Of a stretch of DNA of 64,000 nucleotides, positions 6,951-61,159 are shown piece by piece. The DNA is from Candidatus Shapirobacteria bacterium. Lineage in GTDB: Bacteria; Patescibacteriota; Microgenomatia; UBA12405. The DNA lies in contig JAUYJS010000008.1 in NCBI GenBank assembly GCA_030698565.1, positions 289,275 through 353,274 on the forward strand. Reading direction: 5' to 3'. The notes under the pieces were generated by a model. It ran no database searches and had not been told where the DNA came from. It worked only from the letters and a program-made list of their open reading frames with translations. Each line of letters opens with the position of its first letter. Within the stretch, counting starts at the first letter, position 1. The position numbers were made by a program, and so were the translations under genes.

Positions 6951-6951
6951 T

Positions 6952-17795: not shown

Positions 17796-17822
17796 GTAGA
17801 GACGCCCCGCTGGGCGTCTCTA
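17796..17822. repeat. REP-type palindromic hairpin GTAGAGACGCC-CCGCTG-GGCGTCTCTA in the dnaK-dnaJ spacer (REP family A copy; possible attenuator or mRNA stabiliser)
   Basis: Perfect 10-bp stem. The stem sequence is identical to the REP copies clustered at 45107-45227, and it starts with 5' GTAG. Confidence 0.6.
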
Positions 17823-17852
17823 TTTGATTGTTGGTGATGTTAAAATAGACCC

Positions 17853-24666: not shown

Positions 24667-24681
24667 TTATTAATAAAAAAA

Positions 24682-25419
24682 ATGAAACTAAAAGAAATAA
24701 AAAAATTTTATGAATGGTTCCATTCAAACAAAATTTTAAATCCAAAAGCCGATCTGATGCAGGCCCAAAGATGTGATTATCTTCGATTCCTAATTAAAAA
24801 TATCACGGGTAAATTTCTGGTTATTGGTTGTGGATCAGAAGAAGAAATGGGTATTCTAAATAAAAATTGCGACGGAATCGGGATTGATATTTCCGAAGAA
24901 GCTGTAAAAAAATCAAAGGCAAAATATCCTCAATTTGAATATTATGTAGCTAATGCAACCAACTTACATTTTGAAAAAAACAGTTTTGATTGTGTAATTT
25001 GTAGCGAGGTAATTGAGCATATTCCGGATGATGAAAAATTTCTTTCTGAGGTAAAAAGAGTTCTAAAAAATAACGGTATTTTTATTGTTACTACACCCAA
25101 CTGGTTGAGTTGGTATGGATTAGCGAGAAAGATAGCAGAGGGATTATTCAAAAAACCGGTTACTTCAGACGATCAACCAATAGATAATTGGTCGACTCCA
25201 TCTAGTCTAAAAAGAAAGTTGAAAAAATATGGTTTTGAAATCAATTTTTTAAGAGGACTTTGGTATTTTCCACCTACTGGAAAAGGAAAAAATCAAATAC
25301 CATGGAGAATAACTTTACCAATAGCCAAATTATTTTATCCATTTGAAGTTTTGTTCAGAAGAATCCTCCCTTGGTATGGTCATATGATTTTATTTAAAAC
25401 CAGGCTAATTAAAAGTTAA
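24682..25419 (+). CDS. Class I SAM-dependent methyltransferase
   Basis: VIGCGSEEE (motif I), DCVICSEVIEH and NNGIFIVTTPN. Confidence 0.75.
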   Translation: MKLKEIKKFYEWFHSNKILNPKADLMQAQRCDYLRFLIKNITGKFLVIGCGSEEEMGILNKNCDGIGIDISEEAVKKSKAKYPQFEYYVANATNLHFEKNSFDCVICSEVIEHIPDDEKFLSEVKRVLKNNGIFIVTTPNWLSWYGLARKIAEGLFKKPVTSDDQPIDNWSTPSSLKRKLKKYGFEINFLRGLWYFPPTGKGKNQIPWRITLPIAKLFYPFEVLFRRILPWYGHMILFKTRLIKS

Positions 25420-25458
25420 AAAACATTAAAAAATATTTTTAAAATTGATTTATGAAAT

Positions 25459-27036: not shown

Positions 27037-27322
27037 AATAATCATAATTTTATTATTTTTTATTAATATATTTATTCCTGGATTCTCGATTTCTTTTGCA
27101 CTATTCGATAAAAACATGGACATCTTGGAAAGAATTGGATTCTCGATATTCGTTTCAATATCAATCGTATCAATGATCGGGTTCATTATTAATATAATAT
27201 ATAATTTAAAAATTAATTTTATCAATATAACGTTAATTTCTGTATCCATTGTCATAATAAGTATATTCACAATTTTAGGAAAAAAAATAAAACAGTCATT
27301 TATAAAAAATAAACCAATATAA
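27026..27322 (+). CDS. Small 3-TM membrane protein (GtrA-like?)
   Basis: 98-aa hydrophobic ORF overlapping the end of the previous gene. Confidence 0.3.
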   Translation: MKNEIIIILLFFINIFIPGFSISFALFDKNMDILERIGFSIFVSISIVSMIGFIINIIYNLKINFINITLISVSIVIISIFTILGKKIKQSFIKNKPI

Positions 27323-27324
27323 AT

Positions 27325-28473
27325 ATGATAGAGTTATTCATTTTTTTAAATAAATTATTAGTAAAAATAATCCCAAGCATATTTATTTGGTATCCTGTTA
27401 ATTACAAAAAAGTATCATTCGTAAACAAACATTATTCAGACAGCAATCTTTTACTCACGGCTAAAATGCTATTAAAGCAAAATCCTGAAATAAAGATTCA
27501 ATATATTACAAACAACCCACGAAAATCTACAATTGCAAAACAAATCATATTTTATTTCAAATTATTAAACAGCAGGGTTATAGTTACGACACACGGTCCT
27601 GTAATTAAAACTAAAAAAAATATCTCTCTTGAATTATGGCATGGTATGCCAATAAAAGGGATGAACTTAATGGATAACTTAAAAGAAAAACATACTTCAT
27701 TTTCAAACATTGATCATTTAAATAGTTACTCTCAATTTTTTAATACTGTAATGAATGCTTGTTTTGGTGTGGAAGGAAAAAAATACATCATTCTCGGTAG
27801 CCCTCAAAACGATTTATTGTTCGATTCTAAAAATAAAGAAAAAATATTTCGCTTATTTAGAATTAAAAAAAACCAGAAATATGTAATTTATATGCCGACT
27901 TTTCGAGATAATATAAAAAATTACCAAAATTATCAAAATTTTGTTAAAAATTTAGGATTTTATAAATTTGATCTTCAAATTTTTAATAAATTTTTAATTA
28001 AAAATAACTTAAAACTTATTTTGAAGCCCCATCCAAACGATAATAATTTATGGAAGGAATTCTTTGAAGAACTAAAACTCTCAAATATACTCTTACTTAC
28101 AGAAGAATATTTAATAAAAAACAACCTAGAATTATACGAAATATTAGGTTTGTCCGACCTACTAATTACAGATTATTCCTCAGTCTATGTTGATTATTTG
28201 TTAATAGATAAACCAGTAATTTTTGTTCCAACAGATATTGATCAATATCGAAAAATCAGAACCTTACTTCTTGAACCATATGACTTTTGGGCTCCTGGGC
28301 CTAAAGTATATGATCAAAAAAAACTTGAAGAAGAAATAGTTAAATCTTTAAAAGATGTTAAATATTATCAAGAAGAACGTAATATTCTTAAAAATATTTT
28401 TCATAAATATCAAGATAATAAGTCAACAGAAAGGGTTGTTAATCATATAAATCTTTTATTAAGATCAAAATGA
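27325..28473 (+). CDS. CDP-glycerol glycerophosphotransferase family protein (TagB/TagF-like)
   Basis: C-terminal catalytic-domain motifs ELWHGMPIKG and ITDYSSVYVDYLLIDKPVIFVPTDIDQY. Confidence 0.7.
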   Translation: MIELFIFLNKLLVKIIPSIFIWYPVNYKKVSFVNKHYSDSNLLLTAKMLLKQNPEIKIQYITNNPRKSTIAKQIIFYFKLLNSRVIVTTHGPVIKTKKNISLELWHGMPIKGMNLMDNLKEKHTSFSNIDHLNSYSQFFNTVMNACFGVEGKKYIILGSPQNDLLFDSKNKEKIFRLFRIKKNQKYVIYMPTFRDNIKNYQNYQNFVKNLGFYKFDLQIFNKFLIKNNLKLILKPHPNDNNLWKEFFEELKLSNILLLTEEYLIKNNLELYEILGLSDLLITDYSSVYVDYLLIDKPVIFVPTDIDQYRKIRTLLLEPYDFWAPGPKVYDQKKLEEEIVKSLKDVKYYQEERNILKNIFHKYQDNKSTERVVNHINLLLRSK

Positions 28474-28541
28474 AAAAAACAATAATAAAATATCAAACAC
28501 ATATAGAAATAAAACATATAATTTTAAGTAAAATTTAGTAT

Positions 28542-30362
28542 ATGTGTGGAATATCCGGTATTATTTCTAATAAAGAAATTTATAGGTTGAATGAACGAAT
28601 AATTGCCATGGTTAGTTCGCAACACCATAGAGGTCCAGACAATCAAGGTTACATCACACTTAATAGGGGATGTGTTTTTGGTCACAATAGGTTAAAAATT
28701 ATCGATTTATCAAATTCAGCAAACCAACCATTTACTTCAAATTCTGGAAATATAATAATCGTATTCAATGGAGAAATTTATAATTATCAAGCCATAAAAA
28801 AAGAACTGATTTTAGAATATGAATTTCACACCAAATCAGATACCGAGGTTATGGCTGCGGCCATAGAAACTAAAGGTTTGGATTGGTTTTTAAAAATGTC
28901 AAATGGAATTTTTTCTATAGCTATATATGACAAGTCTAAAAGAAATATTACCTTAGTTAGAGATAGAAGTGGAATCAAGCCCCTTTTTTATTGTGTTGTA
29001 GATAATATTCTTATTTTTGCCTCAGAAATAAAAGCCATACTTGCAAGTGGTTTAGTGAATGGAGAAATGGAATATTGTGCTATTGATGATTATTTTGCTT
29101 TTAGACACGTTAGGGAACCATACACTTTTTTCAAAAATATATATTGCGTTGAAAGTGCAACAAAAATTATTTTTCCAATCGATAATATTAGTAATTATTG
29201 TAAATCTCGATATTGGGAGATACCTCAGCTAAATTTTCAAAAAAAATACAACGAGTTGGATTGCATCGAGGAGTTAAATAGAAAATTATCCAATACTGTA
29301 AAGATGCAAATGGTGGCTGATGTTCCAGTTGGGACATTATTATCAGGAGGATTGGATTCAAGCCTAATTACCGCCCTTGCTTCTTATAAAACGAACACGT
29401 TAGACACTTTTTCTATTGGATTTAAAGAAAAGGAATACAACGAATTTGAGTATTCCAGACTGGTCGCTAAGAATTTTAAAACCAACCACTCAGAATACAT
29501 CTTATCAGAGCAAGATTATTTTAAACAATTAACCGTATTAACTAAAAGTAAAGATGCTCCATTAGGGGTACCCAACGAAATTCCACTATATGAACTTAGT
29601 AAAAAAATTTCGGGTTTCGACAAAGTAATTCTTTCTGGCGAAGGAGCGGATGAAATATTTTTTGGATATGGACGCATATTTAGGTCACCTTATGTGTTTG
29701 AAAATTCCGAAAATAAAATAAAAACATCATTTTATGATTATTTCTCTAAAAGATATGAATATATACCAAGGGACTTGAGAGATAGATTTTTATCTGTGCC
29801 GCTAGATTTACGAAAAAAATTTGATAAAAATTTAAAAAAAGAATTTATAAATTATAAAAATGAAGAAAATGTTTTTAGATTTTTTTTAAATTATCACATA
29901 AAAGAATTACTTATTAGATTGGACTACACCACTATGCAAAGTTCTTTGGAGAGTAGGGTACCATTTCTTGATCACACTCTAATTGATTTCGTAAGTAAAA
30001 ACATACCTAATGAATTGAAGCTTAAATTTAATTTAAATAAAAATAAGTTTAAATGTAAAAATTTATCAGAAGAAGAAATTAGTGAAGTATATGATACTCC
30101 GAAGTACATACTAAAGAAGGTCGCAGAAAGATATTTGCCCCACGACATAATATATCGAAAAAAAATTGGTTTCCCTGTCCCCTTACAATGGTGGGACAAG
30201 TCTCTCCAAAAAACTGCACAAATTTTAAAAAATAGAAATTGGCTTAATGTGGATATTTCTGTAGAGGAGATAGTAAATAATATGTCAGGTCAAGCTTTAT
30301 GGATGTTTATTTGTCTAGCTATTTTCGAAGATAATTATTTTAATAAAAATTACAGGTGGTAA
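28542..30362 (+). CDS. asnB: Asparagine synthetase B-family glutamine amidotransferase
   Basis: N-terminal MCGISGII nucleophile-Cys Ntn domain and a PP-loop SGGLDSS. Confidence 0.85.
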   Translation: MCGISGIISNKEIYRLNERIIAMVSSQHHRGPDNQGYITLNRGCVFGHNRLKIIDLSNSANQPFTSNSGNIIIVFNGEIYNYQAIKKELILEYEFHTKSDTEVMAAAIETKGLDWFLKMSNGIFSIAIYDKSKRNITLVRDRSGIKPLFYCVVDNILIFASEIKAILASGLVNGEMEYCAIDDYFAFRHVREPYTFFKNIYCVESATKIIFPIDNISNYCKSRYWEIPQLNFQKKYNELDCIEELNRKLSNTVKMQMVADVPVGTLLSGGLDSSLITALASYKTNTLDTFSIGFKEKEYNEFEYSRLVAKNFKTNHSEYILSEQDYFKQLTVLTKSKDAPLGVPNEIPLYELSKKISGFDKVILSGEGADEIFFGYGRIFRSPYVFENSENKIKTSFYDYFSKRYEYIPRDLRDRFLSVPLDLRKKFDKNLKKEFINYKNEENVFRFFLNYHIKELLIRLDYTTMQSSLESRVPFLDHTLIDFVSKNIPNELKLKFNLNKNKFKCKNLSEEEISEVYDTPKYILKKVAERYLPHDIIYRKKIGFPVPLQWWDKSLQKTAQILKNRNWLNVDISVEEIVNNMSGQALWMFICLAIFEDNYFNKNYRW

Positions 30363-30371
30363 TATAAAAAT

Positions 30372-30797
30372 ATGAAAAAAATAATAGGATACACTGCTGG
30401 TGTTTATGACTTATTTCATATAGGACACCTTAATCTTTTGCGTAATGCAAAAGGTTTGTGTGATTATTTAATTGTTGGAGTATCTTCGGACATATTAGTT
30501 TCATATAAAAATAAAAAAGCAGTAATTCCATTCAGTGAAAGAATCGAAATTGTCAGGGCGATTAAATATGTAGATTCGGTAGTACCTCAGGAAAATATGG
30601 ATAAATTTGAAATGTGGAAAAAAGTAAAGTTTGACGTAATGTTTGTAGGAGACGATTGGTATAACACAGACAAATGGAAAGACATCGAGGAACAGTTTGA
30701 AAAAGTTGGAGTAAAAATTGTATATTTTCCTTATACGAAAGGTACTAGCTCTACATTAATAAACAAGACATTAGAGGATTTAAGAAGTAAAAAGTGA
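30372..30797 (+). CDS. tagD: Glycerol-3-phosphate cytidylyltransferase (TagD-like)
   Basis: GYTAGVYDLFHIGHLNLL (HxGH cytidylyltransferase motif), about 140 aa. Confidence 0.85.
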   Translation: MKKIIGYTAGVYDLFHIGHLNLLRNAKGLCDYLIVGVSSDILVSYKNKKAVIPFSERIEIVRAIKYVDSVVPQENMDKFEMWKKVKFDVMFVGDDWYNTDKWKDIEEQFEKVGVKIVYFPYTKGTSSTLINKTLEDLRSKK

Positions 30798-30810
30798 CAA
30801 TCTTTCTCTT

Positions 30811-32793
30811 TTGTGTCACATTAATATTATAATTATCAAACATATGAAAGAAACCCAAACTAAAACAATAAAAATAATTTTAATTGCTTCCGGAATTCTA
30901 CTTATTTTTGGAGTAGTCGGGTTTTTAACATATCAATATTGGTCTCCTTTAGGTAAAAAAATAACAACTTCAATGAAGCTTCCTGGGGCCAAAGAAGTGG
31001 CTAACATCGACACCACTAGCCCTACGGGTGGTTTCAAACTTCCTAGTCAAGTCATTACCTCTCAAGCCGCTCGTTTTCCCCTCGACATTAAATCTTCCAA
31101 TATTGAAAATATTCATGCCATTATCAAATTCAAAAAAGGGCCAAAGGAAATCAGATTGGGTATTCGGGGTGATGAAAAAGATAAGTATGTCTACAAACCC
31201 TTTTATCAAACATTTATCCAAGATGCCCAAAAATGGGAACAAATCAAGGGAACTAGTAATATTTTGTATCAAAGAAATAAAAAATATGATTCTATCGTTG
31301 ATTTAATCAACACTCCTCCAGACAAAGAAAAAATTGGCGCCTATTTTGTCAATGCCGAAACTTTAGTAAAAAATACTCCTACAAAAATCGAACCCAATAC
31401 TATTATTAACACTTATCTCCGGGGTACCCATACTTTTTATGTTTGGGTCGATTCCGCTCCGTTTACTTTAAAGGTTAGTAAACAAGACATAAATATGTAT
31501 GATGGAGAAGATAAATTGAAAATAGCTGTTTATAAAGAAAATAAAAAAATAACTGAAAAAGAAATTCCTGATGATGGCATGGCAGGCAAGACTTTACTTA
31601 AAAGAGACTCTCAAACCGAAAAGGTTGAATTGACCGATATTACCCCTGGGATTTATCGGGTAGATATTGTTTCAGACAGTAAAGGTGGTGACACTCTTAT
31701 TACCCGTATCGAGACAAATCAACAAAAAATTATTGCCAAAAGGCTGTTTATTTTAGACAAGAAACCGAGCAATATATACACCGACGCCACCAATCTTACT
31801 GCTCAAATTGCCCACAAAGGATATTTGGATTCCATCAAAATCAATGATAAATATGAAATTAAAATTCTCGAAGTCGGCAAAAAAGTAACTACTGATGTAG
31901 AAGCCCTAACTAAATCAAACTATAATAGTAAAAATCTCTACAAAATAAGTTCGGCCAAAAACGATATCGTCTATACAAGCGACAGTTATTTTGCCTTTTC
32001 ACCAGACCAGTTTTTTAATCCGGAAATAATCAAGAAAACAGAACTAAATACCGTTGAAAGTTTGGATGATATTGATTATATCCTCACTACTTTGACACCT
32101 GCTCGTCAGGAAGGGGATTGGCTTGTGTCTGAAATTAATTTCGACCCAAAAGATTTAAATATTACTGGCAACAAATTATATTTTTCCCTGGAAAGTCCTG
32201 AATTAGCTAAATTCGGTGGAGAACTAGAAATAGAAAGCTTCGAAGTTAATATCGATTACACCGGCGCTTTAGAAAAATTTGTCAAAGCACCAATTATTAA
32301 TCCCACACCAGAAAAGAGAGGTTTTGTTGATAAAATAATGGATTTTTTTAAAAATATACTTAAAAAGAACCAGCCAATTACTTCGACAAATACCCCGACT
32401 CCCACAACCACCCTTGCACTAAAAATAACACCAACAGCCATAGCCACACCCAGCACAAAAATTACCCCCACAATTACCGCCACACCAAGTTCCAAATTAA
32501 CACCAACCTCCACCACCAATAAATCCGTAAAAATTAAAGTTCTAAACGCCGGGGCGTCCGCTGGCGCCGCCGCTCGTTATGCCACACTATTGAAGACTGC
32601 TGGTTACTCGAACACCGAAGCCGGAAATTATGATGGCAGCGATATAAAAAATTGCACAATCACTTATCCGGAAAAATATATTTCAACAGCTACTGATATT
32701 GAAAAAATTTTAAAAACCGAATACAAAACCGTAAACCGGGCGATTAATTATAAGGACGATCAAATTACTATCAATATCGGCGCCATTAATTAA
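30811..32793 (+). CDS. Membrane-anchored extracellular protein with a Thr/Pro-rich linker and a C-terminal LytR_C-like domain
   Basis: N-terminal TM, large ectodomain, TPTPTTT...TPTITATP linker, and C-terminal VKIKVLNAGASAGAAARYATLLKTAGY (LytR_C-like). Confidence 0.55.
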   Translation: MCHINIIIIKHMKETQTKTIKIILIASGILLIFGVVGFLTYQYWSPLGKKITTSMKLPGAKEVANIDTTSPTGGFKLPSQVITSQAARFPLDIKSSNIENIHAIIKFKKGPKEIRLGIRGDEKDKYVYKPFYQTFIQDAQKWEQIKGTSNILYQRNKKYDSIVDLINTPPDKEKIGAYFVNAETLVKNTPTKIEPNTIINTYLRGTHTFYVWVDSAPFTLKVSKQDINMYDGEDKLKIAVYKENKKITEKEIPDDGMAGKTLLKRDSQTEKVELTDITPGIYRVDIVSDSKGGDTLITRIETNQQKIIAKRLFILDKKPSNIYTDATNLTAQIAHKGYLDSIKINDKYEIKILEVGKKVTTDVEALTKSNYNSKNLYKISSAKNDIVYTSDSYFAFSPDQFFNPEIIKKTELNTVESLDDIDYILTTLTPARQEGDWLVSEINFDPKDLNITGNKLYFSLESPELAKFGGELEIESFEVNIDYTGALEKFVKAPIINPTPEKRGFVDKIMDFFKNILKKNQPITSTNTPTPTTTLALKITPTAIATPSTKITPTITATPSSKLTPTSTTNKSVKIKVLNAGASAGAAARYATLLKTAGYSNTEAGNYDGSDIKNCTITYPEKYISTATDIEKILKTEYKTVNRAINYKDDQITINIGAIN

Positions 32794-33773: not shown

Positions 33774-33780
33774 AAAATAA

Positions 33781-33854
33781 CGCCCTCTACAACCTGTCAA
33801 TTTTTTTAAAAAATCACATCCACATTGTAGGGGCGATTCATGAATCGCCCCTAC
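33781..33854. repeat. REP family B cluster: degenerate half-site CGCCCTCTACAACC (33781-33794) plus a perfect 28-bp palindrome GTAGGGGCG-ATTCATGAAT-CGCCCCTAC (33827-33854)
   Basis: Same 9+10+9 architecture and 5' GTAG as the family A REPs. A CGCCCCTACAATG half-site recurs at 45025-45037 beside the RAYT gene. Confidence 0.5.
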
Positions 33855-34601
33855 CTGTTTGTTACCTGTAATCTGAAAAATGCAATTTGTTTTTACACAG
33901 ACGGGTCGCGACCTGTAAAACAAATTCGTCGTTTTTGGGATGAAAATCAACCGTACGATAAAATCGTACGGTTAAAATTAATTGCATCCGATGGCAAAAT
34001 ACGTTTTACTGACTGTGCTGACACAGAAACAATTTTTCGTTTAATTCAATCAATTCCTTCACCTAAGGCCGAACCGTTTAAATTATGGTTGGCCAAAGTT
34101 GGCCACGAAAGGTTAAAAGAAATTGTAGATCCAGAAATTTCCCTAAACAGAGCTAGGGAAAATTGGAAATCAATGGGACATTCGACGAAATGGATTGAAC
34201 AAAGAATGCGAGGTCAAGAAATAAGAAATAAATTAACTGATTATTGGGCTAACCATAAAATTGAGGAGCAAGAAGAATTTGCCATTCTCACAAACATAAT
34301 TCACAAAGAATGGACTGGTCTAACAGTCAAAGAACATAAAAATTTAAAAAATCTCAAAGGTCATAATTTACGAGATAATATGACCGACGCTGAATTACTA
34401 TTTACTTCCCTGGCCGAACTGACTACACACAAAATAGCGGAGAATGAAAAAGCAATTGGTTTTAATAAAAATGCCATTTCTGCCCAAAAAGGTGGCCGTT
34501 ATACCAAAAAAGCTAAGGAAAATTTTGAAAAATTAACCAACAGTAAAGTAATAAATAAACAAAACTATTTACCATCAAAAAACATTAAAAAGATTAAATA
34601 A
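33840..34601 (+). CDS. DinD-like / Bro-N-family DNA-damage-inducible protein
   Basis: C-terminal half aligns with E. coli DinD (KNLKGHNLRDNMTDAELLFTSLAELTT vs KGLKKNQKILDHMGSTELAANLFRATQT). The ATG lies inside the REP-B loop. Confidence 0.5.
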   Translation: MNRPYLFVTCNLKNAICFYTDGSRPVKQIRRFWDENQPYDKIVRLKLIASDGKIRFTDCADTETIFRLIQSIPSPKAEPFKLWLAKVGHERLKEIVDPEISLNRARENWKSMGHSTKWIEQRMRGQEIRNKLTDYWANHKIEEQEEFAILTNIIHKEWTGLTVKEHKNLKNLKGHNLRDNMTDAELLFTSLAELTTHKIAENEKAIGFNKNAISAQKGGRYTKKAKENFEKLTNSKVINKQNYLPSKNIKKIK

Positions 34602-43250: not shown

Positions 43251-45014
43251 ATGAACAATCAAAATATTGATCAAAACAAAGTGCCTCAAAACTTTTCTAA
43301 AGCAAAGCCCCAAGTTAGGGAATTTAGAAAAAATTATGATTCAGTTAGAATTTCTGCCCTAGGAGGCTTTGGTGGTGTGACTCAAAACATGTACGCCTAC
43401 GAATATATACCCAACGGCGATACTAGTAAAAGCCAAATAATTATTGTCGACTGTGGCGTTGGCTTTCCCGAAGAAGATGCTTTTGGTGTCGATTTACAGA
43501 TTCCCGACACTCATTATCTTGAAGACAAAAAAGACCGAATCTTGGGTATATTTATTACTCACGGCCACGAAGACCACATTGGCGCAATCAGGTTCATCTT
43601 GCCTATTTTAGGCAAAGAAATTCCGATTTATGCGCCCAAATTGGCGGCTGCATTTATAGAATCCAGATTGAGCGAAATTAGCATGCAATCCAATCTTCAC
43701 GTTTATGAAGATAACACCCCTCCAATGGTCAAGGGCCATTTTACTGTTGATCCTATTCGCGTAACCCACTCAATTCCCGACACTTATCATTTTGCTATCA
43801 CTACACCGATTGGTATTATTTACCATGGTTCTGATTTTAAATTCGACCTTTTCCCATTAGATGGCAAAGGTGTCGATTATCGACATATTGCCCGCATTGG
43901 TGAAAAAAAAGTTCTAGTTTTATTATCAGATAGTTTAGGTTCCGATCACGAAGGTTATTCTCCTTCAGAAAGTTCCATTGCAGAACACTTTAAAAGAGAA
44001 ATTGTTGGAGCCAAAGGTAGGGTATTTGTTACCTCGATCTCCAGCAATATTGTTCGTTGGAGTCAAGCGATTGAATACGCCAAGGGTAGTGGTAAAAAAA
44101 TAGTAGTTGTTGGATTTTCAGTTGAAAAAGCAATTAGTATCGCCAAAGACTTAGGTTATCTAAAATTAAATGACAATGATATTATTCCGGTCGATAGAGC
44201 CAAAAATTTTCCTGATAGCAAATTACTTTTTTTAGTAGCCGGCTTTGCCGGTCAACCCGATTCGGCTTTAAGTAAAATGGTAATGGGTAAACATCGGATT
44301 AAAATAAAATCTGGCGACAAAGTTATCTTTTCTTCTCCTGATTATATTCCAGGTACAACTTCAAATATTTACAGCATGATCGATGTCTTATCTAAAATGG
44401 GTGCCGAGGTTTCTTATGGTGAAAAGGAAGAACTTCATGTGTCCGGTCATGGTTACCAAAAAGAACAGGCTCTCCTCATTAGCCTTTTAAGTCCTAAATA
44501 TTTACTCCCAATCGGCGGTAATTATCGTCATCAAAAAAGTTACCAAACAATGGCAAAATCTTTGGGTTATCCAGAAGAAGACGTAATTACTCCAGATTAT
44601 GGTACTTCGGTTACTTTTAATGGTAATGGTAGTTATGATACTTCTTTCCATATTCCATTAAGAAAGATATTGATTGACGGTTTGGGTGTAGGCGATGTTG
44701 GTACTACGGTTTTACGAGATCGTAAATTACTCGCTGGCGACGGTATGTTCTCAGTTGTCTTGCTCATAAACGGACAAACGGGTGAATTAACCAAAGATCC
44801 TGTAATTCTAAGTCGCGGATTCGTTTTTATGAAAGAAAATACCGAATTGATGAATTTTATAAAACAGGAAGTTGTTAATAAATTCAAAGAATCAACCAGT
44901 GCTCCGGCTAATTTTGATTTTATACGCGAACAAATTCAAGCTTATATCGAAAGCATAATTTACGAAAAAACCGGCCGCCAACCAATGGTTTTGCCGTTGG
45001 TAATTGAGGTATAA
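43251..45014 (+). CDS. rnj: Ribonuclease J (metallo-beta-lactamase/beta-CASP)
   Basis: RISALGGFGGVTQNMYAYEY, ITHGHEDHIGAI, 587 aa. Confidence 0.9.
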   Translation: MNNQNIDQNKVPQNFSKAKPQVREFRKNYDSVRISALGGFGGVTQNMYAYEYIPNGDTSKSQIIIVDCGVGFPEEDAFGVDLQIPDTHYLEDKKDRILGIFITHGHEDHIGAIRFILPILGKEIPIYAPKLAAAFIESRLSEISMQSNLHVYEDNTPPMVKGHFTVDPIRVTHSIPDTYHFAITTPIGIIYHGSDFKFDLFPLDGKGVDYRHIARIGEKKVLVLLSDSLGSDHEGYSPSESSIAEHFKREIVGAKGRVFVTSISSNIVRWSQAIEYAKGSGKKIVVVGFSVEKAISIAKDLGYLKLNDNDIIPVDRAKNFPDSKLLFLVAGFAGQPDSALSKMVMGKHRIKIKSGDKVIFSSPDYIPGTTSNIYSMIDVLSKMGAEVSYGEKEELHVSGHGYQKEQALLISLLSPKYLLPIGGNYRHQKSYQTMAKSLGYPEEDVITPDYGTSVTFNGNGSYDTSFHIPLRKILIDGLGVGDVGTTVLRDRKLLAGDGMFSVVLLINGQTGELTKDPVILSRGFVFMKENTELMNFIKQEVVNKFKESTSAPANFDFIREQIQAYIESIIYEKTGRQPMVLPLVIEV

Positions 45015-45106
45015 AAATATAATACGCCCCTACAATGGGTGTAATTTAATAAAAAATTTGACGACAGCACGTCATTTTACATACTTGCCCGCATTTTCTA
45101 TTCCGT

Positions 45107-45227
45107 GTAGAGACGCCAGATCTGGCGTCTCAATCAATGAATCAATATGATTTTGTAGAGACGCATTGTATGCGTCTCAAACATAAAATACGACACGTTG
45201 TAGAGACGCGATTAATCGCGTCTCTAC
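45107..45227. repeat. Cluster of three REP family A hairpins (45107-45132, 45155-45178, 45200-45227): GTAGAGACGC-loop-GCGTCTC(TAC), with 21-22-bp spacers, upstream of the RAYT gene
   Basis: Identical stems with three different palindromic loops (CAGATCTG, ATTGTAT, GATTAATC). All begin with the GTAG tetranucleotide characteristic of RAYT-associated REPs. Confidence 0.7.
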
Positions 45228-45266
45228 CTGTAACACATTAATGTAAATTACATTACAATTAAATTA

Positions 45267-45827
45267 ATGCCTGTTGATAATCCAGATTTATTTGCTGATA
45301 AATTTCGAGTCAAATCTGCAAGATTAGAAGGAAGGGATTATTCCTTGCCAGGGTTTTATTTTATAACCATTTGTACCCATAACAAAAATAAATTCTTCGG
45401 AAAAATTATTAATGGGAAAATAAAATTGTCCAAAGTGGGGAAAATTGTTGAAACGAATATGATTTTATTATCAAACCGTTTTAACAATATTGTAATTGAT
45501 ATATTTGTAATCATGCCAAATCATATTCATATTGTTTTTAAAATTAATAAATGCAGTAATGAATTTTTGGGTAGAGACGCGATTAATCGCGTCTCTACAA
45601 ACCAAATAAATATTATTCCAAACCCAATGAAACAATTCTCATTAGGAACGGTTATTCGATATTTTAAAGCAAAAGTAAAATTTGATACTAACCGCCAAAA
45701 ATTATTTTTCACCTGGCAATCCCGATATTATGATCGGATTATCCGGACAGAAAAGGAATATTGGGCGATTAAACAATATATTGATAATAATCCCAAAAAT
45801 TGGCAGAAAGATGTTTGTTATAAATAA
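45267..45827 (+). CDS. REP-associated tyrosine transposase (RAYT; IS200/IS605-like Y1 HuH transposase)
   Basis: Collinear with E. coli RayT/YafM (GFYFITICTHNKNKFF ~ WFFTVNLRNRR; HuH motif MPNHIHIVF ~ LPEHMHCIW; RYYDRIIRTEKEYWAIKQYIDNNP ~ RFWEHAIRNTKDYRHHVDYIYINP). Flanked upstream by REPs. Confidence 0.8.
   Translation: MPVDNPDLFADKFRVKSARLEGRDYSLPGFYFITICTHNKNKFFGKIINGKIKLSKVGKIVETNMILLSNRFNNIVIDIFVIMPNHIHIVFKINKCSNEFLGRDAINRVSTNQINIIPNPMKQFSLGTVIRYFKAKVKFDTNRQKLFFTWQSRYYDRIIRTEKEYWAIKQYIDNNPKNWQKDVCYK
45571..45598. repeat. REP family A copy inside the RAYT ORF, in frame (encodes GRDAINRVST); identical 28-mer to the 45200-45227 copy
   Basis: Exact repeat GTAGAGACGCGATTAATCGCGTCTCTAC. The reading frame is maintained across it. 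Confidence 0.65.
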
Positions 45828-46074
45828 ATTTAATTCTTACAACAACCTTTTTCCAGGATAATCAGGGTCGATATTATTCAAATTTGGACAATTTGACCTT
45901 CTAGCTTCAATTGTCGATTATGATCGTCAAACTGTTTTACTTCGTCAGCGATTGATTCAGCAATTATTCTGAATTGACACATCTTCTCTCTGTTGCAAAA
46001 TGGACATATTTTTTCCACAAGCGATTATATCAAATACGAAACCCACCAGAGGCTGTTTTAATGTAAAATAGGCT

Positions 46075-47490
46075 ATGAAAGAACTAGTTAAAAAATCAGC
46101 CGATTTATCAGAATGGTACAACAATATAGTTTTAAAAGCCGAACTTGCCGACTATGCCCCGGTCAAAGGTTGTATGGTAATTCGTCCTTATGGTTATGCT
46201 ATTTGGGAAGGCATCCAAAATTTCTTGGATAAGTTAATCAAAGATCGCGGTGTTAAAAATTCTTATTTTCCTTTATTTATTCCCGAAAGTTTTTTGAACA
46301 AAGAAAAGGAACATGTAAAAGGATTTTCTCCTGAATTAGCAGTAGTTACTATCGCTGGCGGCGAAAAATTAAAAGAAAACTTAATTGTCCGTCCGACTTC
46401 CGAAACCATTATGTATGATATGTTTAGAAAGTGGACTTCGTCATGGCGGGATTTACCAATTTTAATGAATCAATGGTGCAATGTTGTTCGTTGGGAACAG
46501 AGGACATATCTCTTTTTAAGAACCTCAGAATTTTTGTGGCAGGAAGGCCATTGTGCCCATCTTACTCACAAGGAAAGCTCAGACATGGTGTTGTGGGCTC
46601 TGGATACATATCAAAAAACTTATACCGATCTTTTGGCCATGTATGGTTATGCCGGAGTCAAAAGCGAATCGGAAAAATTTGCCGGTGCTGGTAAAACGTA
46701 TACCTTCGAATGTTTAATGCCCAATGGCAAAGCTCTCCAGGCCTGCACTTCTCATGATTTAGGTCAAAATTTTGCCAAATCTTTTGATTGGACGGTTCAA
46801 GATAAAAATGGAGATAAAATTAATCCTTGGCAAAATAGTTGGGGATTTTCTACTAGAAGCATTGGTGGATTAATTATGGTTCACGGCGATGATTCCGGAT
46901 TAGTATTTCCTCCTCAAATTGCACCAACTCAAATAGTTATAGTTCCTATACCTGCTCACGAATTAGCCAAAGAATTATCCGAATCAATATACAAAAATCT
47001 TAAAAATGAATTCAGAACAGAAATTGATTTGGTCGAGCAAGAATCCGCCGGTTTCAAATTTAATAAATGGGAAATGAAAGGTGTTCCTGTGAGGATAGAA
47101 ATTGGAGACAGGGAAGCCAAGGAAAATAAGGTCGTTTTATTTCGCCGTGATACTAGTGAAAAAATGATTATTGACGTTAAAGATTTAAATTCCAAAATAA
47201 CTGAAGTTTTAAAAGACATTCAAAATGAATTATTTCTAAAACATAAAAAATTCACTCTGGATAATACTTTTAAAGTTGACACTTATGAAGAATTTAAAAA
47301 AATTATGAATACAACTAAGGGTTTTATATCTGCCCTTTGGTGCGAAGATGCAGAATGCGAATCCAAGATTAAAGAAGAAACAAAAGCTACTACCAGGTGT
47401 TTACCTTTAGAAAATAAACCTGAAAAGGGAGTATGTGTTTGTTGTGGTCGGCCGGCTAATCATCGTTGGCTCTTTGCACAATCATATTAA
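46075..47490 (+). CDS. proS: Proline--tRNA ligase, archaeal/eukaryotic type with a C-terminal zinc-binding domain
   Basis: Collinear with archaeal-type ProRS (RPYGYAIWE, RPTSET, NQWCNVVRWE, FLRTSEFLWQEGH, C-terminal CVCCG...Y). Confidence 0.85.
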   Translation: MKELVKKSADLSEWYNNIVLKAELADYAPVKGCMVIRPYGYAIWEGIQNFLDKLIKDRGVKNSYFPLFIPESFLNKEKEHVKGFSPELAVVTIAGGEKLKENLIVRPTSETIMYDMFRKWTSSWRDLPILMNQWCNVVRWEQRTYLFLRTSEFLWQEGHCAHLTHKESSDMVLWALDTYQKTYTDLLAMYGYAGVKSESEKFAGAGKTYTFECLMPNGKALQACTSHDLGQNFAKSFDWTVQDKNGDKINPWQNSWGFSTRSIGGLIMVHGDDSGLVFPPQIAPTQIVIVPIPAHELAKELSESIYKNLKNEFRTEIDLVEQESAGFKFNKWEMKGVPVRIEIGDREAKENKVVLFRRDTSEKMIIDVKDLNSKITEVLKDIQNELFLKHKKFTLDNTFKVDTYEEFKKIMNTTKGFISALWCEDAECESKIKEETKATTRCLPLENKPEKGVCVCCGRPANHRWLFAQSY

Positions 47491-49637
47491 CCAGTTATAC
47501 TAATTTTATGGCTAAGCGTGGTCGCCGCAAAAAAAATAAACTTTTACCCAGTCTTCGGTTAAAACCAGAGACGGTCAAGTCTATATTTTTTATATTCTTT
47601 TTGATCTTGTCTCTCTTGTCTATTTTCTCGTTTCTTCAAACGGGTCCAATTCCCATCTCCTACAACCAACTTTTATCCCAATATTTTGGTTTCGGTGGAA
47701 TTTTAATACCATTTTTATTTATTTTAATTGCTTTTTTATTTACCAAAGTCAAAACCCCACTCAAAGATTTAAATGTATTTTTAGGCTTTTTAATAATGTT
47801 TGTGTCAATTATAAGTCTTTTTCAAACCGGATTAGCCGGTATTTTTTTATGGGATCAATTTTTGTCTTTATTTGGTCAAGTCTTTAGTTTTTTAATATTT
47901 TTCTTTTCCTTTATTGTCGGTTTTGTAATTCTTTTTGATACTTCAATTGCCCAGATATTTCGTTTTATTTCCGCCACTTTTGCTTTAATTAAAAAATATA
48001 CCTTTGGTAACTCCAAAATCAAAGGTGATAAAAAAACCAAAAATGATGTTTATATCCAATCCGATGCGAATTACAAAGATCACTCAAAAGACAAAGACGA
48101 TCCAGTTGTAGTCAATATTCCGCCAGTTCTAAAAGATATTCAAACCCAATTATCAGTTGATCCTATTAAGTCTTTTAACACCTTAAATTCAACGGAAAAT
48201 AGAATCTGGGAATATCCGCCAATCTCTCTTTTCGACGACGCTCCTGGTGCCAAGGCCGACCGTGGTGATGTGCGCAAAAACGCCCAAATTATCGAACAAA
48301 CTCTTGATTCGTTTGGTATTACCGCTCGTGTTGCCGAAGTAAACAATAGCCCGTCGGTTACCCAATATGCTCTGGAAGTTGCCCTTGGTACAAAATTAGC
48401 CAAAATTCTCAGTTTATCTAATGACTTAGCTATGGCACTGGCTGCTCCTGGTGGTCAAATTCGTGTAGAAGCACCAATTCCTAGTCGATCATTAGTTGGT
48501 ATCGAAGTGCCCAACCGGTCTTTAGAAGTAGTACCGATCAAAAGAATCCTAGATTCGGAACCAATGAAGAATGCTAAAAATAAAATTACAATTCCGCTTG
48601 GTCTCGATGTGGCCGGTAATCCTAAGGTCGGCGATATCACCAAAATGCCCCACGTCTTAATTGCCGGGCAAACTGGTTCCGGTAAATCTGTCTGTGTCAA
48701 TTCTTGGATTTGTAATATTTTATTTAGGGCATCCCCAGACGAAGTTAGAATGATTATGGTCGACCCCAAAAGAGTCGAATTGACACCATACAACGGTATT
48801 CCTCATCTTTTAACTCCTGTTATAGTCGAGCCAGAAAAAGTGGTTTCAGCCCTAAAATGGGCCGTTTCCGAAATGGAACGCCGCTACAAAATGTTTACCG
48901 AAGTCGGTACGAAAAATATAGAAGCTTACAATAATATGGCCGGGTTCCAGTCTATTCCGTATATTTTAATCTTTATAGATGAATTAGCCGAAATTATGCT
49001 TTTTTCACCGTCTGAAGTGGAAGACAATATTTGTCGGATTGCTCAGATGGCTCGAGCTGTCGGTATTCATTTAATCTTAGCCACCCAAAGACCTTCTGTA
49101 AACATCATTACCGGATTGATCAAAGCCAATATTCCTACCAGATTAGCTTTTGCTGTTTCTTCTATGACCGATTCACGGGTTATTTTGGACACTCCGGGCG
49201 CCGAAAAACTTTTGGGTCGCGGCGACATGCTCTATATTCCACCAGAGTTAGCCAAGCCAGTTAGAATTCAAGGCTGTTTTGTATCAGACAAAGAAATCAA
49301 TAATTTAATTAATTTTCTTAAAAAACAAAAAACTACTGATTATGATGACCAAATAACAAGCCAACCAGTAGCCAGTTCCACTTCATTAAGTAAAAATACT
49401 CTTTCGGTAAATGGCGAGGATAGGGATACTTTGTTCGAAAATGCTGTCAAATTAGTTCAAGAAACAGGCAAGGCATCAGCTTCAATGATGCAGCGTCGTC
49501 TCAAATTGGGTTATGCTCGGGCAGCCAGGGTTTTGGATCAGTTAGAAGCAGCTGGAATAGTTGGGCCGTCCAATGGCGCCAAACCACGGGAAATATTAAT
49601 TGCACACAACAGCCCCTCCAATAATTCTGAAATCTAA
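47466..49637 (+). CDS. ftsK: DNA translocase FtsK/SpoIIIE (true start probably the MAKRGRR methionine near 47508)
   Basis: N-terminal TM segments, Walker A AGQTGSGKS, FIDELAE, and a C-terminal gamma winged-helix domain. Confidence 0.9.
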   Translation: MALCTIILTSYTNFMAKRGRRKKNKLLPSLRLKPETVKSIFFIFFLILSLLSIFSFLQTGPIPISYNQLLSQYFGFGGILIPFLFILIAFLFTKVKTPLKDLNVFLGFLIMFVSIISLFQTGLAGIFLWDQFLSLFGQVFSFLIFFFSFIVGFVILFDTSIAQIFRFISATFALIKKYTFGNSKIKGDKKTKNDVYIQSDANYKDHSKDKDDPVVVNIPPVLKDIQTQLSVDPIKSFNTLNSTENRIWEYPPISLFDDAPGAKADRGDVRKNAQIIEQTLDSFGITARVAEVNNSPSVTQYALEVALGTKLAKILSLSNDLAMALAAPGGQIRVEAPIPSRSLVGIEVPNRSLEVVPIKRILDSEPMKNAKNKITIPLGLDVAGNPKVGDITKMPHVLIAGQTGSGKSVCVNSWICNILFRASPDEVRMIMVDPKRVELTPYNGIPHLLTPVIVEPEKVVSALKWAVSEMERRYKMFTEVGTKNIEAYNNMAGFQSIPYILIFIDELAEIMLFSPSEVEDNICRIAQMARAVGIHLILATQRPSVNIITGLIKANIPTRLAFAVSSMTDSRVILDTPGAEKLLGRGDMLYIPPELAKPVRIQGCFVSDKEINNLINFLKKQKTTDYDDQITSQPVASSTSLSKNTLSVNGEDRDTLFENAVKLVQETGKASASMMQRRLKLGYARAARVLDQLEAAGIVGPSNGAKPREILIAHNSPSNNSEI

Positions 49638-57166: not shown

Positions 57167-57224
57167 CAATCCCTGCAAAATTTTCCACAATAGAGTGTTC
57201 TTTAATGTGCAAATAGTTTTATTA

Positions 57225-57410
57225 ACAAGAGCGTGTGGTCCTGCTTTGCAGGAATACGAGGAGGGAGTCCCTTGCTTTGCAAGGGAAATCGGACCTTCAC
57301 AATATATGTGAAGAGTTATCTGCGGAAACTCCCAGGTGGCAACTGCCACCTAAATGTCTTTTTTAAAACTTTGGAGTAATCCAAAACCTAAAGAGAAGAC
57401 AATCAGTTAC
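57225..57410 (+). ncRNA. Candidate glmS ribozyme (GlcN6P-responsive self-cleaving riboswitch) in the glmS leader
   Basis: 319-nt non-coding gap upstream of glmS. Its segments ACGAGGAGGGAG ... CUGCGGAAACUCCCAGG ... UAAAUGUCUUUUUUAAAACUUUGGAGUAAUCCAAAACCUAAAGAGAAGACAAUCA parallel B. subtilis glmS core segments (GACGAGGAUGGAGG, CGGCGGAUGCCUCCCGG, UAAGGAUUUCUUCAAACCAAGGGGGUGACUCCUUGAACAAAGAGAAAUCA). The comparison is recalled from memory. Confidence 0.55.
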
Positions 57411-57485
57411 TATTTTCACCCAAGAACATCAGTCTTTAGCTTTACTGTGTATTTAATTATTGTAAAACTAACGGACCAATGTCAT

Positions 57486-59258
57486 ATGTGTGGAATTTTT
57501 GCTTATAAAGGCTCCAGCTTAAACGCAGCCGATGTTATTTCTTCTGGTTTAAAACGATTGGAATATCGAGGATATGATTCGTGGGGTGTAGCTGTAATTA
57601 ATAACGGTTCTATTTTATTGAAGAAAGATATCGGAAAAATAGGGGATATAAATAAATTAGATCTACCAGTCAGTAAATTAGGTATCGGTCATACCCGCTG
57701 GGCTACCACCGGCGCCGTTACCCAAATTAATGCTCACCCGCACCTTTCTTCCGACCACTCTTTTGCCTTGGTCCAAAACGGTATTGTAGAAAACTTTGAA
57801 GAATTAAAAGAAGATTTAAAAAATAAAGGTTATAAATTTATTAGTCAAACCGACACCGAGGTAATCGTTCGCCTAATCGAAGAAGAAAAAAAAATCCACC
57901 CCGATTTAGTTGATGCAATTAAATCCGCATTTCTTAAATTAAAAGGCAGAAATACAATTGCTGTTTTAGACTCTAAAACAGAACAAATATTGGCTGTTCG
58001 CAATGGTTCTCCGTTAATTATTGGATTAAGTAAAAACAAAGACATATTTTTATCGTCCGATGCTCTATCCCTATCTTCTTTTGTTGATAAGATTATAGTT
58101 TTAGACAACGGCGAATTAGTAAAGATCGGATCTAAAATAGAAATTAAAAATATAAAAACTGGCAAAATAGTCCATAAAGACTGGGAAAAATTAACCTTTA
58201 AGGATGCAAATATAGACAAAGGTAAATATGATAATTATATGATTAAAGAAATTTGCGACACACCAGAAACAATCAACCAAGTAATTGTACAGGATGAAAA
58301 AAATATTCAAAATTTAGCCAAAGCCATTAAAGCTGCTCGTTATGTTTTTACAATTGGTTCCGGCACTGCTGGCAATGCCGCTGGCCAAATCGCTTTTTAT
58401 CTTCGCGAAATTGCCAAAATTCCGGCCATAAGTTTAATTGGTGCTGACGCCAAGGAATATTATGATTTATTTTCAGAAAAAGATCTTCTTATCGCTCCAT
58501 CTCAAAGCGGAGAAACAGCCGATGTTGTCGAGGTATTGGATATAGCCAAAGCCAAAGGATGTAAAATTGCCACTTATGTAAATATGCCTGGGAGTATGAT
58601 GAACCGTATGTCTGATTTTAAATTTTTAGCCAACGCCGGTCCGGAAATCTGTGTCATGTCGACCAAAATTTTTGTCTCGCAAGTCGCCTGGGGTTATTTA
58701 CTGGCCAAGACAACAGTTGGTCTGTACGAAGATGGAATTAATAATCTTTCGAAATTAGCGGCAGACATTAAAACTTATTTAGAAGAAGACACTTCTCACC
58801 AAGCCGCAAAAAAACTGGCTCAAAATTTAATAGAAATTAAAGACCTTTTTATATTAGGTAAATCCCAAAATTTTTATATTGCCAAAGAGGGCATGGTCAA
58901 AATAATTGAGGGCACATATAAACACGCCCACGCTATTCCCGCTGGCGATTTAAAACATTATGCTATTACATTAATAGAAAGAGGAGTGTATGCTTTAGCA
59001 CTTGTTTCCAACGACAGTTCCTTCTCTGAGATGTTTAATGTTGTCAATGAAATTAAATCTCGTGGTGGCAGTATTATTGGAATTTATCCAGAAAAATTAC
59101 CTGCTTTCGATTATTATTTAAAATCCCCATCTATTGGCGAAACCAGCGCCATCGGCAATATAATTCCTCTTCAACTTTTAGCCTATTATTTGGCTGTATT
59201 GTTGGGGAACAACGTCGACAAACCCAGAAACATCGCCAAATCAGTAACAGTGAAATAA
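57486..59258 (+). CDS. glmS: Glutamine--fructose-6-phosphate aminotransferase (true start at MCGIF; the ORF-track start at 57354 lies inside the leader RNA)
   Basis: MCGIFAYKG N-terminal nucleophile Cys, two SIS domains, C-terminal ...VDKPRNIAKSVTVK. Confidence 0.93.
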   Translation: MCGIFAYKGSSLNAADVISSGLKRLEYRGYDSWGVAVINNGSILLKKDIGKIGDINKLDLPVSKLGIGHTRWATTGAVTQINAHPHLSSDHSFALVQNGIVENFEELKEDLKNKGYKFISQTDTEVIVRLIEEEKKIHPDLVDAIKSAFLKLKGRNTIAVLDSKTEQILAVRNGSPLIIGLSKNKDIFLSSDALSLSSFVDKIIVLDNGELVKIGSKIEIKNIKTGKIVHKDWEKLTFKDANIDKGKYDNYMIKEICDTPETINQVIVQDEKNIQNLAKAIKAARYVFTIGSGTAGNAAGQIAFYLREIAKIPAISLIGADAKEYYDLFSEKDLLIAPSQSGETADVVEVLDIAKAKGCKIATYVNMPGSMMNRMSDFKFLANAGPEICVMSTKIFVSQVAWGYLLAKTTVGLYEDGINNLSKLAADIKTYLEEDTSHQAAKKLAQNLIEIKDLFILGKSQNFYIAKEGMVKIIEGTYKHAHAIPAGDLKHYAITLIERGVYALALVSNDSSFSEMFNVVNEIKSRGGSIIGIYPEKLPAFDYYLKSPSIGETSAIGNIIPLQLLAYYLAVLLGNNVDKPRNIAKSVTVK

Positions 59259-61019: not shown

Positions 61020-61065
61020 AAAATAAATTACAAAAAATTCCACAGTTTTACTTTAAAATTAACTG

Positions 61066-61094
61066 TTGACCTAATATTATCCTAGATATATAAT
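61066..61094 (+). promoter_or_regulatory. Sigma70-like promoter for rpoB (TTGACC, 17 nt, TATAAT) with a roughly 65-nt leader
   Basis: TTGACC at 61066-61071 and TATAAT at 61089-61094, read directly from the sequence. Confidence 0.4.
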
Positions 61095-61159
61095 ACCCAC
61101 ATTCGGTCGAGCAGTTGGAACATAACTCGCCCCTTTGCTTTAATAATTAAATTTGTTTA

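Follow-up and report, generated by a model that had tools for sequence, protein, structure and literature searches.

The stretch of DNA analysed here, 64 kb in length and referred to as the window, belongs to a metagenome-assembled genome (MAG) of Shapirobacteria, within the candidate phyla radiation (CPR/Patescibacteria). Downstream of the RNase J gene rnj (43251-45014, + strand) it contains an open reading frame (ORF) of 186 aa with an ATG start codon (45267..45827, +), and the 252-bp spacer that separates the two holds three hairpin-forming palindromes, REP1-REP3. A fourth palindrome, REP4, is located inside the ORF, and two related elements are found at distant positions in the window. The locus is very probably a 'REPtron', in which an apparently single-copy, domesticated Y1 HuH nuclease gene of the RAYT type (REP-associated tyrosine transposase, also called TnpA_REP) is combined with its cognate repetitive extragenic palindrome (REP) hairpins. 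The gene is assigned to subclass 2.4 in the classification of Quentin, Siguier, Chandler and Fichant 2018 (PMC6006769), which corresponds to RAYT group 4 of Bertels, Gallie and Rainey 2017 (PMC5581495).

The first two hairpins in the spacer, REP1 (GTAGAGACGCCAGATCTGGCGTCTC, composed of GTAGAGACGC-CAGATCTG-GCGTCTC; 45107..45131, +) and REP2 (GTAGAGACGCATTGTATGCGTCTC, composed of GTAGAGACGC-ATTGTAT-GCGTCTC; 45155..45178, +), are of the single-foot type; REP1, which carries GTAG at its 5' foot only, lies 136 bp 5' of the start codon. REP3 (GTAGAGACGCGATTAATCGCGTCTCTAC; 45200..45227, no strand assigned) is a perfect 28-nt double-foot palindrome that ends 39 bp before the ATG, and the intragenic REP4 (GTAGAGACGCGATTAATCGCGTCTCTAC; 45571..45598, no strand assigned) is identical to it at 28 of 28 positions. 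The spacer between dnaK and dnaJ contains the dispersed REP GTAGAGACGCCCCGCTGGGCGTCTCTAT (17796..17823, +), which matches the pattern of an intrinsic terminator with a 12-bp stem and a T-rich tail. The other dispersed copy, GTAGGGGCGATTCATGAATCGCCCCTAC (33827..33854, no strand assigned), has a second class of stem (GTAGGGGCG...CGCCCCTAC) and is located in the spacer before an ORF with a putative Bro-N domain; like REP3 and REP4 it is a 28-nt double-foot palindrome. A T tract is absent from REP1, REP2, REP3 and REP4, for which the terminator scan of the + strand lists no entry.

The hairpins are GC-rich perfect palindromes in a window with a GC content of 34.8%. The chance expectation of the hairpin pattern was obtained from 100 dinucleotide-preserving shuffles of the window. 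The pattern AGAGACGC-N(2-14)-GCGTCTC occurs at 17798, 45109, 45157, 45202 and 45573, compared to a mean of 0.00 in the shuffles, and GTAGAGACGC, with at most one mismatch allowed, has eight strand-specific matches where 0.67 are expected, all of them inside the five GTAGAGACGC...GCGTCTC elements. Folding as single-stranded DNA gives energies of -10.6 to -15.2 kcal/mol for all six hairpins (z-scores of -4.9 to -7.5), and no shuffled sequence is as stable.

The product of the ORF is identical to an NCBI protein entry named 'MAG: transposase [Candidatus Shapirobacteria bacterium]', and a database search with it retrieves 1,683 relatives, many of which are called RayT or transposase. An alignment of 42 sequences shows no variation at H86, H88, W150, Q151, Y171 and N175. 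The motif N85-H86-I87-H88, including the HuH residues H86-I-H88 (45522-45530, +), fits the NH[IFV]H form of subclass 2.4, and the WQ and YIxNNP motifs published for the same subclass are both present, as W150-Q151 (45714-45719, +) and as YIDNNP (Y171-I-D-N-N-P176; 45777-45794, +). The first residue of the latter motif, Y171 (45777-45779, +), is the presumed catalytic tyrosine. When a family profile is searched against the PDB, the sole sequence match is E. coli TnpA_REP (PDB entry 4ER8; E 8.9e-8). This match spans the HuH strand and the WQ...Y region, placing W150-Q151 on W94-Q95 and Y171 on Y115. The AlphaFold model of the protein has a mean predicted local distance difference test score (pLDDT) of 84.9, and its top match in a Foldseek search is 4er8_A (template modelling, TM, scores of 0.56/0.62), ahead of the TnpA structures of IS608, ISDra2 and IS200. 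Residues 94-125 are the only internal residues with a low pLDDT (52-58 over residues 101-120 approximately), and the alignment is gappy at exactly these residues, revealing the presence of a variable insert between the HuH strand (β3) and helix αC. The gene occurs once in the window and is absent from the 10 kb upstream of it; a tnpB gene beside it or a hairpin 3' of its stop codon was not found. RAYTs in general are present once per genome, do not reside on plasmids and lack the duplicated ends of insertion sequences, and their REPs are scattered through intergenic regions of the whole genome. Because of the motifs, the profile search and the fold, the ORF is assigned to the RAYTs, and the profile and fold searches likewise place it in the Y1_Tnp superfamily, single-sequence scores being below threshold. 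The protein is thus predicted to be a Y1 HuH nuclease from the RAYT/TnpA_REP branch, and its catalytic residues are intact.

Several observations weigh against this assignment or limit its scope. As a single sequence the protein scores 13.9 bits with the Pfam profile PF01797 (Y1_Tnp), for which the gathering threshold is 23, and 50.2 bits with the NCBIfam equivalog model NF047646 (REP_Tyr_transpos), for which the cut-off is 80 (E 2.3e-13, residues 25-176). By these scores it is related to the E. coli-type NF047646 model, yet it is no equivalog member of that model; a precomputed match to PF01797 is carried by many of its homologs. Four of the six REPs lie within 500 bp at the RAYT locus, and the other two are found in intergenic spacers 11 and 27 kb away. 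Judged over 74 kb, i.e. the window plus the 10 kb upstream (Logan contig L205), in which no further REP was found, the dispersal of the REPs is sparse, with two distant copies, and their proliferation is weak. No biochemistry of any subclass 2.4 enzyme was found in the literature, the assayed enzymes being those of groups 2 and 3. Finally, transposition, gene conversion from REP3 and ancient retention are all possible origins of REP4.

An earlier note on this DNA had proposed a RAYT similar to E. coli RayT together with GTAG-initiated REP hairpins, of which three lie directly 5' of the 186-aa ORF and further copies at 17796, at 33827 (as a variant) and inside the gene. The likeness is borne out by 4ER8 being both the sole profile match in the PDB and the best fold match. 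The pairing of gene and hairpins is supported in addition by the motifs and by the same hairpins at homologous genes in other phyla, and the palindromes were all recovered (45107, 45155, 45200 and, within the gene, 45571, besides the two distant copies). The profile search that the note had put forward as a check gave a mixed outcome: the single sequence stays below the Pfam and NCBIfam cut-offs, and it is the motifs, the family profile and the fold that connect the protein to the Y1 HuH transposases.

REP4 is read in frame as residues 102-111 of the RAYT (GRDAINRVST), and this decapeptide falls in the loop that connects the HuH strand to the following helix and has low confidence in the model, in agreement with the published idea of a peripheral, permissive loop. 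To see how common such an arrangement is, 80 metagenomic homolog loci were retrieved with peptide patterns of the HuH and WQ motifs, ignoring the REP, since the protein search is seeded by shared five-residue words and RDAINRVST was therefore over-represented among the first 120 protein matches. An intragenic GC-rich perfect hairpin is present in 60 of these 80 loci, and is usually identical or nearly identical to the REPs that flank the gene or are dispersed there. Between the HuH and WQ motifs one to three hairpins are found in 43 of the 63 genes in which both motifs were located, starting 5-58 residues after the HuH motif (median 14). Translation of the GT[AG]G foot follows GTA-GAG in 19 cases and xGT-AGA in 12; in none is the frame used that would yield a TAG stop. 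The RAYT genes of a Bacteroidota MAG and of a Calditrichota genome contain the exact 28-mer of the window and read it as RDAINRVST, and a one-mismatch copy in another metagenomic gene is read in the other frame, as VETRLIASLQ. It is thus the DNA palindrome and not the peptide that recurs. The same layout is found in homologs of many phyla, each with its own REP variant, and in some homologs degenerate REP fragments occupy the loop. REP-coded peptides are also observed outside the usual loop: twice in an N-terminal extension (RDATFWVS, homolog P0114), at the C-terminus (RRDAQFGRLYK, P0104) and just before the WQ motif (NAMNRVS and NAINRVST, P0068 and P0118).

When one genome per species was scanned for GTAGAGACGC-N(4-12)-GCGTCTC, at least 120 stretches were returned. 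Among the matches listed, the stem is found in Chloroflexota, Bacteroidota, Cyanobacteria, Acidobacteriota, Spirochaetota, Planctomycetota, Desulfobacterota, Gammaproteobacteria, Actinomycetota, Omnitrophota, Cloacimonadota, Zixibacteria, Gemmatimonadota and two other Patescibacteria genomes, among others. No RAYT gene accompanies 136 of the 143 stem copies in these listed matches, in surrounding stretches of up to 8 kb, as is expected for dispersed REPs. The full 28-mer with the GATTAATC centre is present in at least five phyla. RAYTs that go with the identical 28-mer show a core identity of 43-46% to the window RAYT and are no closer to it than RAYTs whose REPs differ; across the sample, the core identity rises just from 0.42 to 0.46 when a REP class is shared, a difference that none of 500 permutations reaches. 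With the 10-nt outer stem fixed, 256 self-complementary 8-nt centres are available, and for this reason the shared 28-mer is not taken as a sign of transfer. We read it as a product of a conserved 10-nt outer stem and few self-complementary centres, together with weak co-evolution. A recent transfer of the REPtron between phyla was rejected in view of the core identity of 43-46% and of the outer stems, which are already catalogued. The exact 28-mer GTAGAGACGCGATTAATCGCGTCTCTAC is also present in 14 putative viral contigs of IMG/VR (L210-L223), in up to three copies each, and RAYT homologs are encoded on four other viral contigs (L224-L227). The two never occur together in the retrieved stretches of those contigs, and a phage vector for the REPtron has no support.

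The surroundings of the gene were compared between strains by means of relatives of the neighbouring RNase J. The Logan contig L206 matches the window with 95.7% identity over 5.5 kb, a stretch that ends two bases beyond the rnj stop codon, and with 96.7% identity from ftsK onward, and lacks the RAYT between these two genes. It contains instead a double-foot REP directly after rnj (GTAGAGACGTAGCGCACTACGTCTCTAC), a Cys-rich ORF of 75 aa (-) and a proS of the bacterial type, which includes an editing domain (576 aa; 5950-7680 of the contig). In the window the corresponding variable block (45017..47495, no strand assigned) comprises the REP cluster, the RAYT gene, the remnant of a small ORF and a proS of the archaeal/eukaryote-like type (ProRS-C_1, 471 aa; 46075-47490). 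The replaced block, which includes the REPtron, is bounded just past the rnj stop (45016/45017) and just before the ftsK start (about 47495-47507). A conserved Cys-rich ORF of 74-75 aa without a Pfam match is located after rnj on the opposite strand in related Shapirobacteria (L206 5554-5781 (-); L209 5833-6057 (-)). In the window it is matched by tblastn at about 45837-46018 (-) in two pieces that overlap at ~45908-45911, residues 38-51 remaining unmatched, and the window piece is probably a frameshifted or internally deleted remnant. As the block differs in close strains with matching flanks, the REPtron resides in a variable cassette in which the spacer REPs are changing.

Directly after rnj the window has only a 3' half REP, CGCCCCTAC (45025..45033, +), whereas intact elements follow the rnj stop codon in L206 and in a third strain, L207, which is 90% identical. 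The latter has the intact REP GTAGAGACGTCCCGGCGGGGCGTCTCTAC and then the same REP1 at the same place, where its contig ends. By comparison with these two sister strains the half REP of the window is explained as a decayed REP. The 5' flank of REP3, AAATACGACAcGTT, matches the flank of the lone REP after rnj in L206 and L207. The REP content after rnj thus varies between strains that are 90-96% identical; at the rnj locus of Shapirobacteria that are further removed, with RNase J identities of 75-79%, the RAYT and the REPs are both absent. The differences between strains are indirect evidence that points to recent turnover of REPs, without showing the window enzyme as its cause. Half-REP remnants occur in two places, AATAACGCCCTCTACAA at 33776-33792 and ATACGCCCCTACAA at 45020-45036, in both cases directly after the stop codon of unrelated genes and followed by ~45 nt of similar A/T-rich DNA and then by a full REP. 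A small hairpin, TGACGACAGCACGTCA, followed by TTTT (45059..45074, +) is a candidate rnj terminator by consensus match only, and is not a REP.

The REP between dnaK and dnaJ looks like a terminator or attenuator hairpin, in accordance with the secondary host roles reported for REPs. Both distant REPs are situated near kinds of genes that are often associated with mobile elements. A RhuM-family gene (18766-19794, +) follows just after dnaJ, ~1 kb 3' of the dnaK-dnaJ REP, and the ORF at 33840-34601 (+), the first listed ATG of which falls within the 33827 REP, has a sub-threshold match to Bro-N (22.8 bits vs 25.6). The GC skew yields no usable replication direction for a test of strand bias, and with three single-foot REPs such a test has no statistical power.

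The structure 4ER8, the enzymes of groups 2 and 3 that were studied in vitro (PMC8266576) and IS608 together allow a mechanism for the REPtron to be proposed. The protein would bind the folded, single-stranded REP hairpin and read the 5' GTAG foot with W150, Q151 and R160, the equivalents of W94, Q95 and R104 in the E. coli enzyme. Three of the six GTAG-contacting residues of E. coli are retained in this way, and the other three are conservatively replaced (Y155, D156 and R157). The GTAG foot would serve both recognition and the choice of the cleavage site, the cut being made at a nearby dinucleotide via a 5'-phosphotyrosine link to Y171, after which the strands would be rejoined. Excision and copying of REPs would take place on DNA in single-stranded form, probably at replication forks, and most new copies would land close by, which would explain why REPs cluster beside the gene and why one lies within it. 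This intragenic copy could survive because the loop would tolerate any peptide, unless GTAG is read as xxG-TAG, and dispersed REPs may also come to serve the host. As the assayed enzymes are of groups 2 and 3 only, we infer the cleavage site, the chemistry and even the activity of the window enzyme from these relatives.

Four other explanations can be weighed against an operating REPtron. The element may be of the same kind and yet be inactive at present, the RAYT being a relic or having another role, with the REPs persisting as DNA or RNA hairpins such as terminators or mRNA stabilisers. The low copy number (74 kb contain six REPs, of which four are at the RAYT locus), the different centres of all extragenic REPs, the reduction of one REP to a half-site, the terminator-like dnaK-dnaJ copy and the distant Shapirobacteria without RAYT or REPs at the rnj locus all accord with such a fate. 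It is nevertheless considered unlikely in view of the intact ORF, in which all family-invariant residues are kept, of the complete identity of REP3 and REP4 where other copies differ, and of the post-rnj REP content, whose differences at 90-96% strain identity imply turnover on a short time scale. It is distinctly less probable that the REP inside the gene is no passenger but is selected, as a built-in copy that unites enzyme and substrate on transfer, as a site of autoregulation or as a hairpin that attenuates transcription. The presence of such a REP in 60 of the 80 homolog loci, its match to the local REP family, its recurrence in the same region between the motifs and the retention of the palindrome while the encoded peptide shifts with the frame argue for selection. 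However, about one quarter to one third of the homologs have none, between 0 and 3 copies are present, at distances that range from 5 to 58 residues past the HuH motif, degenerate fragments occupy the loop of some homologs, and REP-coded peptides occur at the N- and C-termini as well. This pattern is better explained by repeated insertion and decay in a permissive, low-confidence loop, as suggested in PMC6006769.

The two remaining explanations dispense with the REPtron altogether. An autonomous insertion sequence of the IS200/IS605 family, with TnpA only and with the hairpins as its subterminal left and right ends, would have the same Y1 HuH fold, which also matches the IS608, ISDra2 and IS200 TnpA structures, and could have hairpins immediately 5' of the gene. 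It is very improbable, considering that 4ER8 is the sole sequence match in the PDB and the best fold match, that the motifs are those of subclass 2.4 and not of subclass 1.1 (TnpA_IS200), that the hairpin downstream of the stop codon and tnpB are absent and only one copy is present in the window, and that lone hairpins without a gene are found at distant sites, both here and in other genomes. A chance proximity of the ORF to palindromes that are ordinary rho-independent terminators or operator sites has a probability close to negligible. The 17796 copy does fit the terminator pattern and dimeric regulators can bind palindromes, but REP1-REP4 have no T tract, one copy lies within coding sequence, zero are expected by chance, and the stem occurs inside or beside homologous RAYT genes in many phyla, where it is catalogued as REP. 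An extension of the REPtron interpretation may be added, to which a slim chance only is given. The in-gene REP would be an 'on-board' copy of the substrate, maintained at the DNA level in a frame that avoids the TAG stop, which would keep enzyme and hairpin together and could regulate in cis, and the REPtron would move with proS between close CPR strains by recombination at REP-bearing spacers. If true, REP clusters would be recombination hot spots that drive the replacement of housekeeping genes in reduced genomes.

The kind of system described here is not new, as REPs around and inside the gene are known for subclass 2.4 in other phyla, and public databases already name such CPR proteins 'transposase' or 'RayT'. 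RAYTs of group 4/subclass 2.4 are common in Cyanobacteria and Bacteroidetes and are scattered over many phyla (PMC6006769, PMC5581495), and the novelty that the earlier note saw in the locus, on the grounds that REP/RAYT systems are described mainly in Proteobacteria, does not hold. Its suggestion of an 'active or recently active' system receives indirect support from the identical copies at 45200 and 45571 and from the REP differences between strains; the dispersal of REPs here is sparse. The only new point is the occurrence of this layout in a Shapirobacteria (CPR) bacterium with a tiny genome; a literature search found no paper that pairs RAYTs or REPINs with Patescibacteria in a relevant context, and text searches for the RDAINRVST peptide or the stem sequence gave no relevant paper. 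The importance of the finding is therefore modest: it extends the subclass 2.4 REPtron from Cyanobacteria, Bacteroidetes and 'various phyla' to the reduced genomes of CPR bacteria, in which repeats are few. Being compact and polymorphic in close strains (present, absent, or with different REPs after rnj), the locus could be a small natural test case for REP turnover and could help to decide whether the in-gene REP typical of subclass 2.4 has a function. The most useful leads are the presence or absence of the RAYT at strain level and the lack of a published subclass 2.4 assay in the literature searched.

Elsewhere in the window, a glmS ribozyme/riboswitch (Rfam RF00234, 60.9 bits) is located at 57219-57411 (+) and overlaps the start of a 634-aa ORF (57354-59258), which presumably is glmS. 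The GC content is 0.278 at 24001-32000 and 0.35-0.37 in the rest of the window, and the former segment may be foreign or island-like. No ORFs of at least 120 aa are listed at 61020-64000, most likely on account of a long gene that extends beyond the window and is omitted from the ORF listing.

Among known systems, the TnpA proteins of the IS200/IS605 family (IS608, ISDra2) share with the window RAYT the catalytic fold and the logic of a hairpin combined with a guide tetranucleotide on single-stranded DNA. They differ in being part of multi-copy mobile units with defined left and right ends, often accompanied by tnpB, features that are not seen in the window. E. coli TnpA_REP (RayT/YafM, subclass 2.2/group 2, 4ER8) has the same Y1 HuH fold and alignable HuH, WQ and Tyr motifs, and its REP/BIME (bacterial interspersed mosaic element) system shows the same GTAG at the 5' foot of the hairpin and a single-copy gene beside REPs, as is seen within the window. 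However, the two proteins are only 17% identical in the structural alignment, and the GTAG-contacting residues W99, E100 and H101 of E. coli are replaced by Y155, D156 and R157. The palindromes of the E. coli REPs are imperfect, containing a bulge, and have one foot only; they are present in hundreds of copies, none of them inside the gene. The group 3 REPtrons of Stenotrophomonas maltophilia and Marinomonas MWYL1 (Corneloup et al. 2021, PMC8266576) resemble the window locus in that their REPs are perfect palindromes directly after GTAG. The Marinomonas REPs are, moreover, concentrated beside the gene in a similar way, from which the authors infer a recent arrival and local multiplication. These systems belong to subclass 2.5, with a DH[LF]H motif, shorter stems, no double foot and no intragenic REP, and their enzymes have been shown to cleave at CT or CA.

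The closest correspondence is found with subclass 2.4 itself. Its members have the NH[IFV]H, WQ and YIxNNP motifs (Table 1 of PMC6006769), a length of ~194 aa and an insert behind the HuH strand that varies in length and sequence, and the window RAYT agrees with them in its signature motifs, in its size of ~190 aa and in the insert between the HuH strand and the next helix. The REPs of subclass 2.4 are described as 'double-foot', the 5' end being GT[AG]G and the 3' end C[TC]AC, and are found within the coding sequence as well, in frame, in the part that separates the HuH motif from the Tyr motif (PMC6006769). The window likewise has 28-nt double-foot REPs, GTAG being the 5' and CTAC the 3' foot, with GTAGAGAC or GTAGGGGC stems that flank the gene and lie in frame inside it, and the wide, patchy distribution over phyla is a further point in common. 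The locus departs from the described examples in its host, a CPR/Patescibacteria (Shapirobacteria) MAG of ~35% GC, and in its apparently very small REP population, with REPs upstream of and inside the gene only and none downstream. Supplement 2 of PMC6006769 lists the subclass 2.4 REPs GTAGAGACGCACGGCCGTGCGTCTCTAC from Chloroflexus aggregans and GTAGGGGCGAAAAATTTTTCGCCCCTAC from Caldilinea aerophila, and the Chloroflexus and Caldilinea REPs listed there have the stems GTAGAGACGC...GCGTCTCTAC and GTAGGGGCG...CGCCCCTAC. Both stem classes of the window are those of these catalogued REPs.

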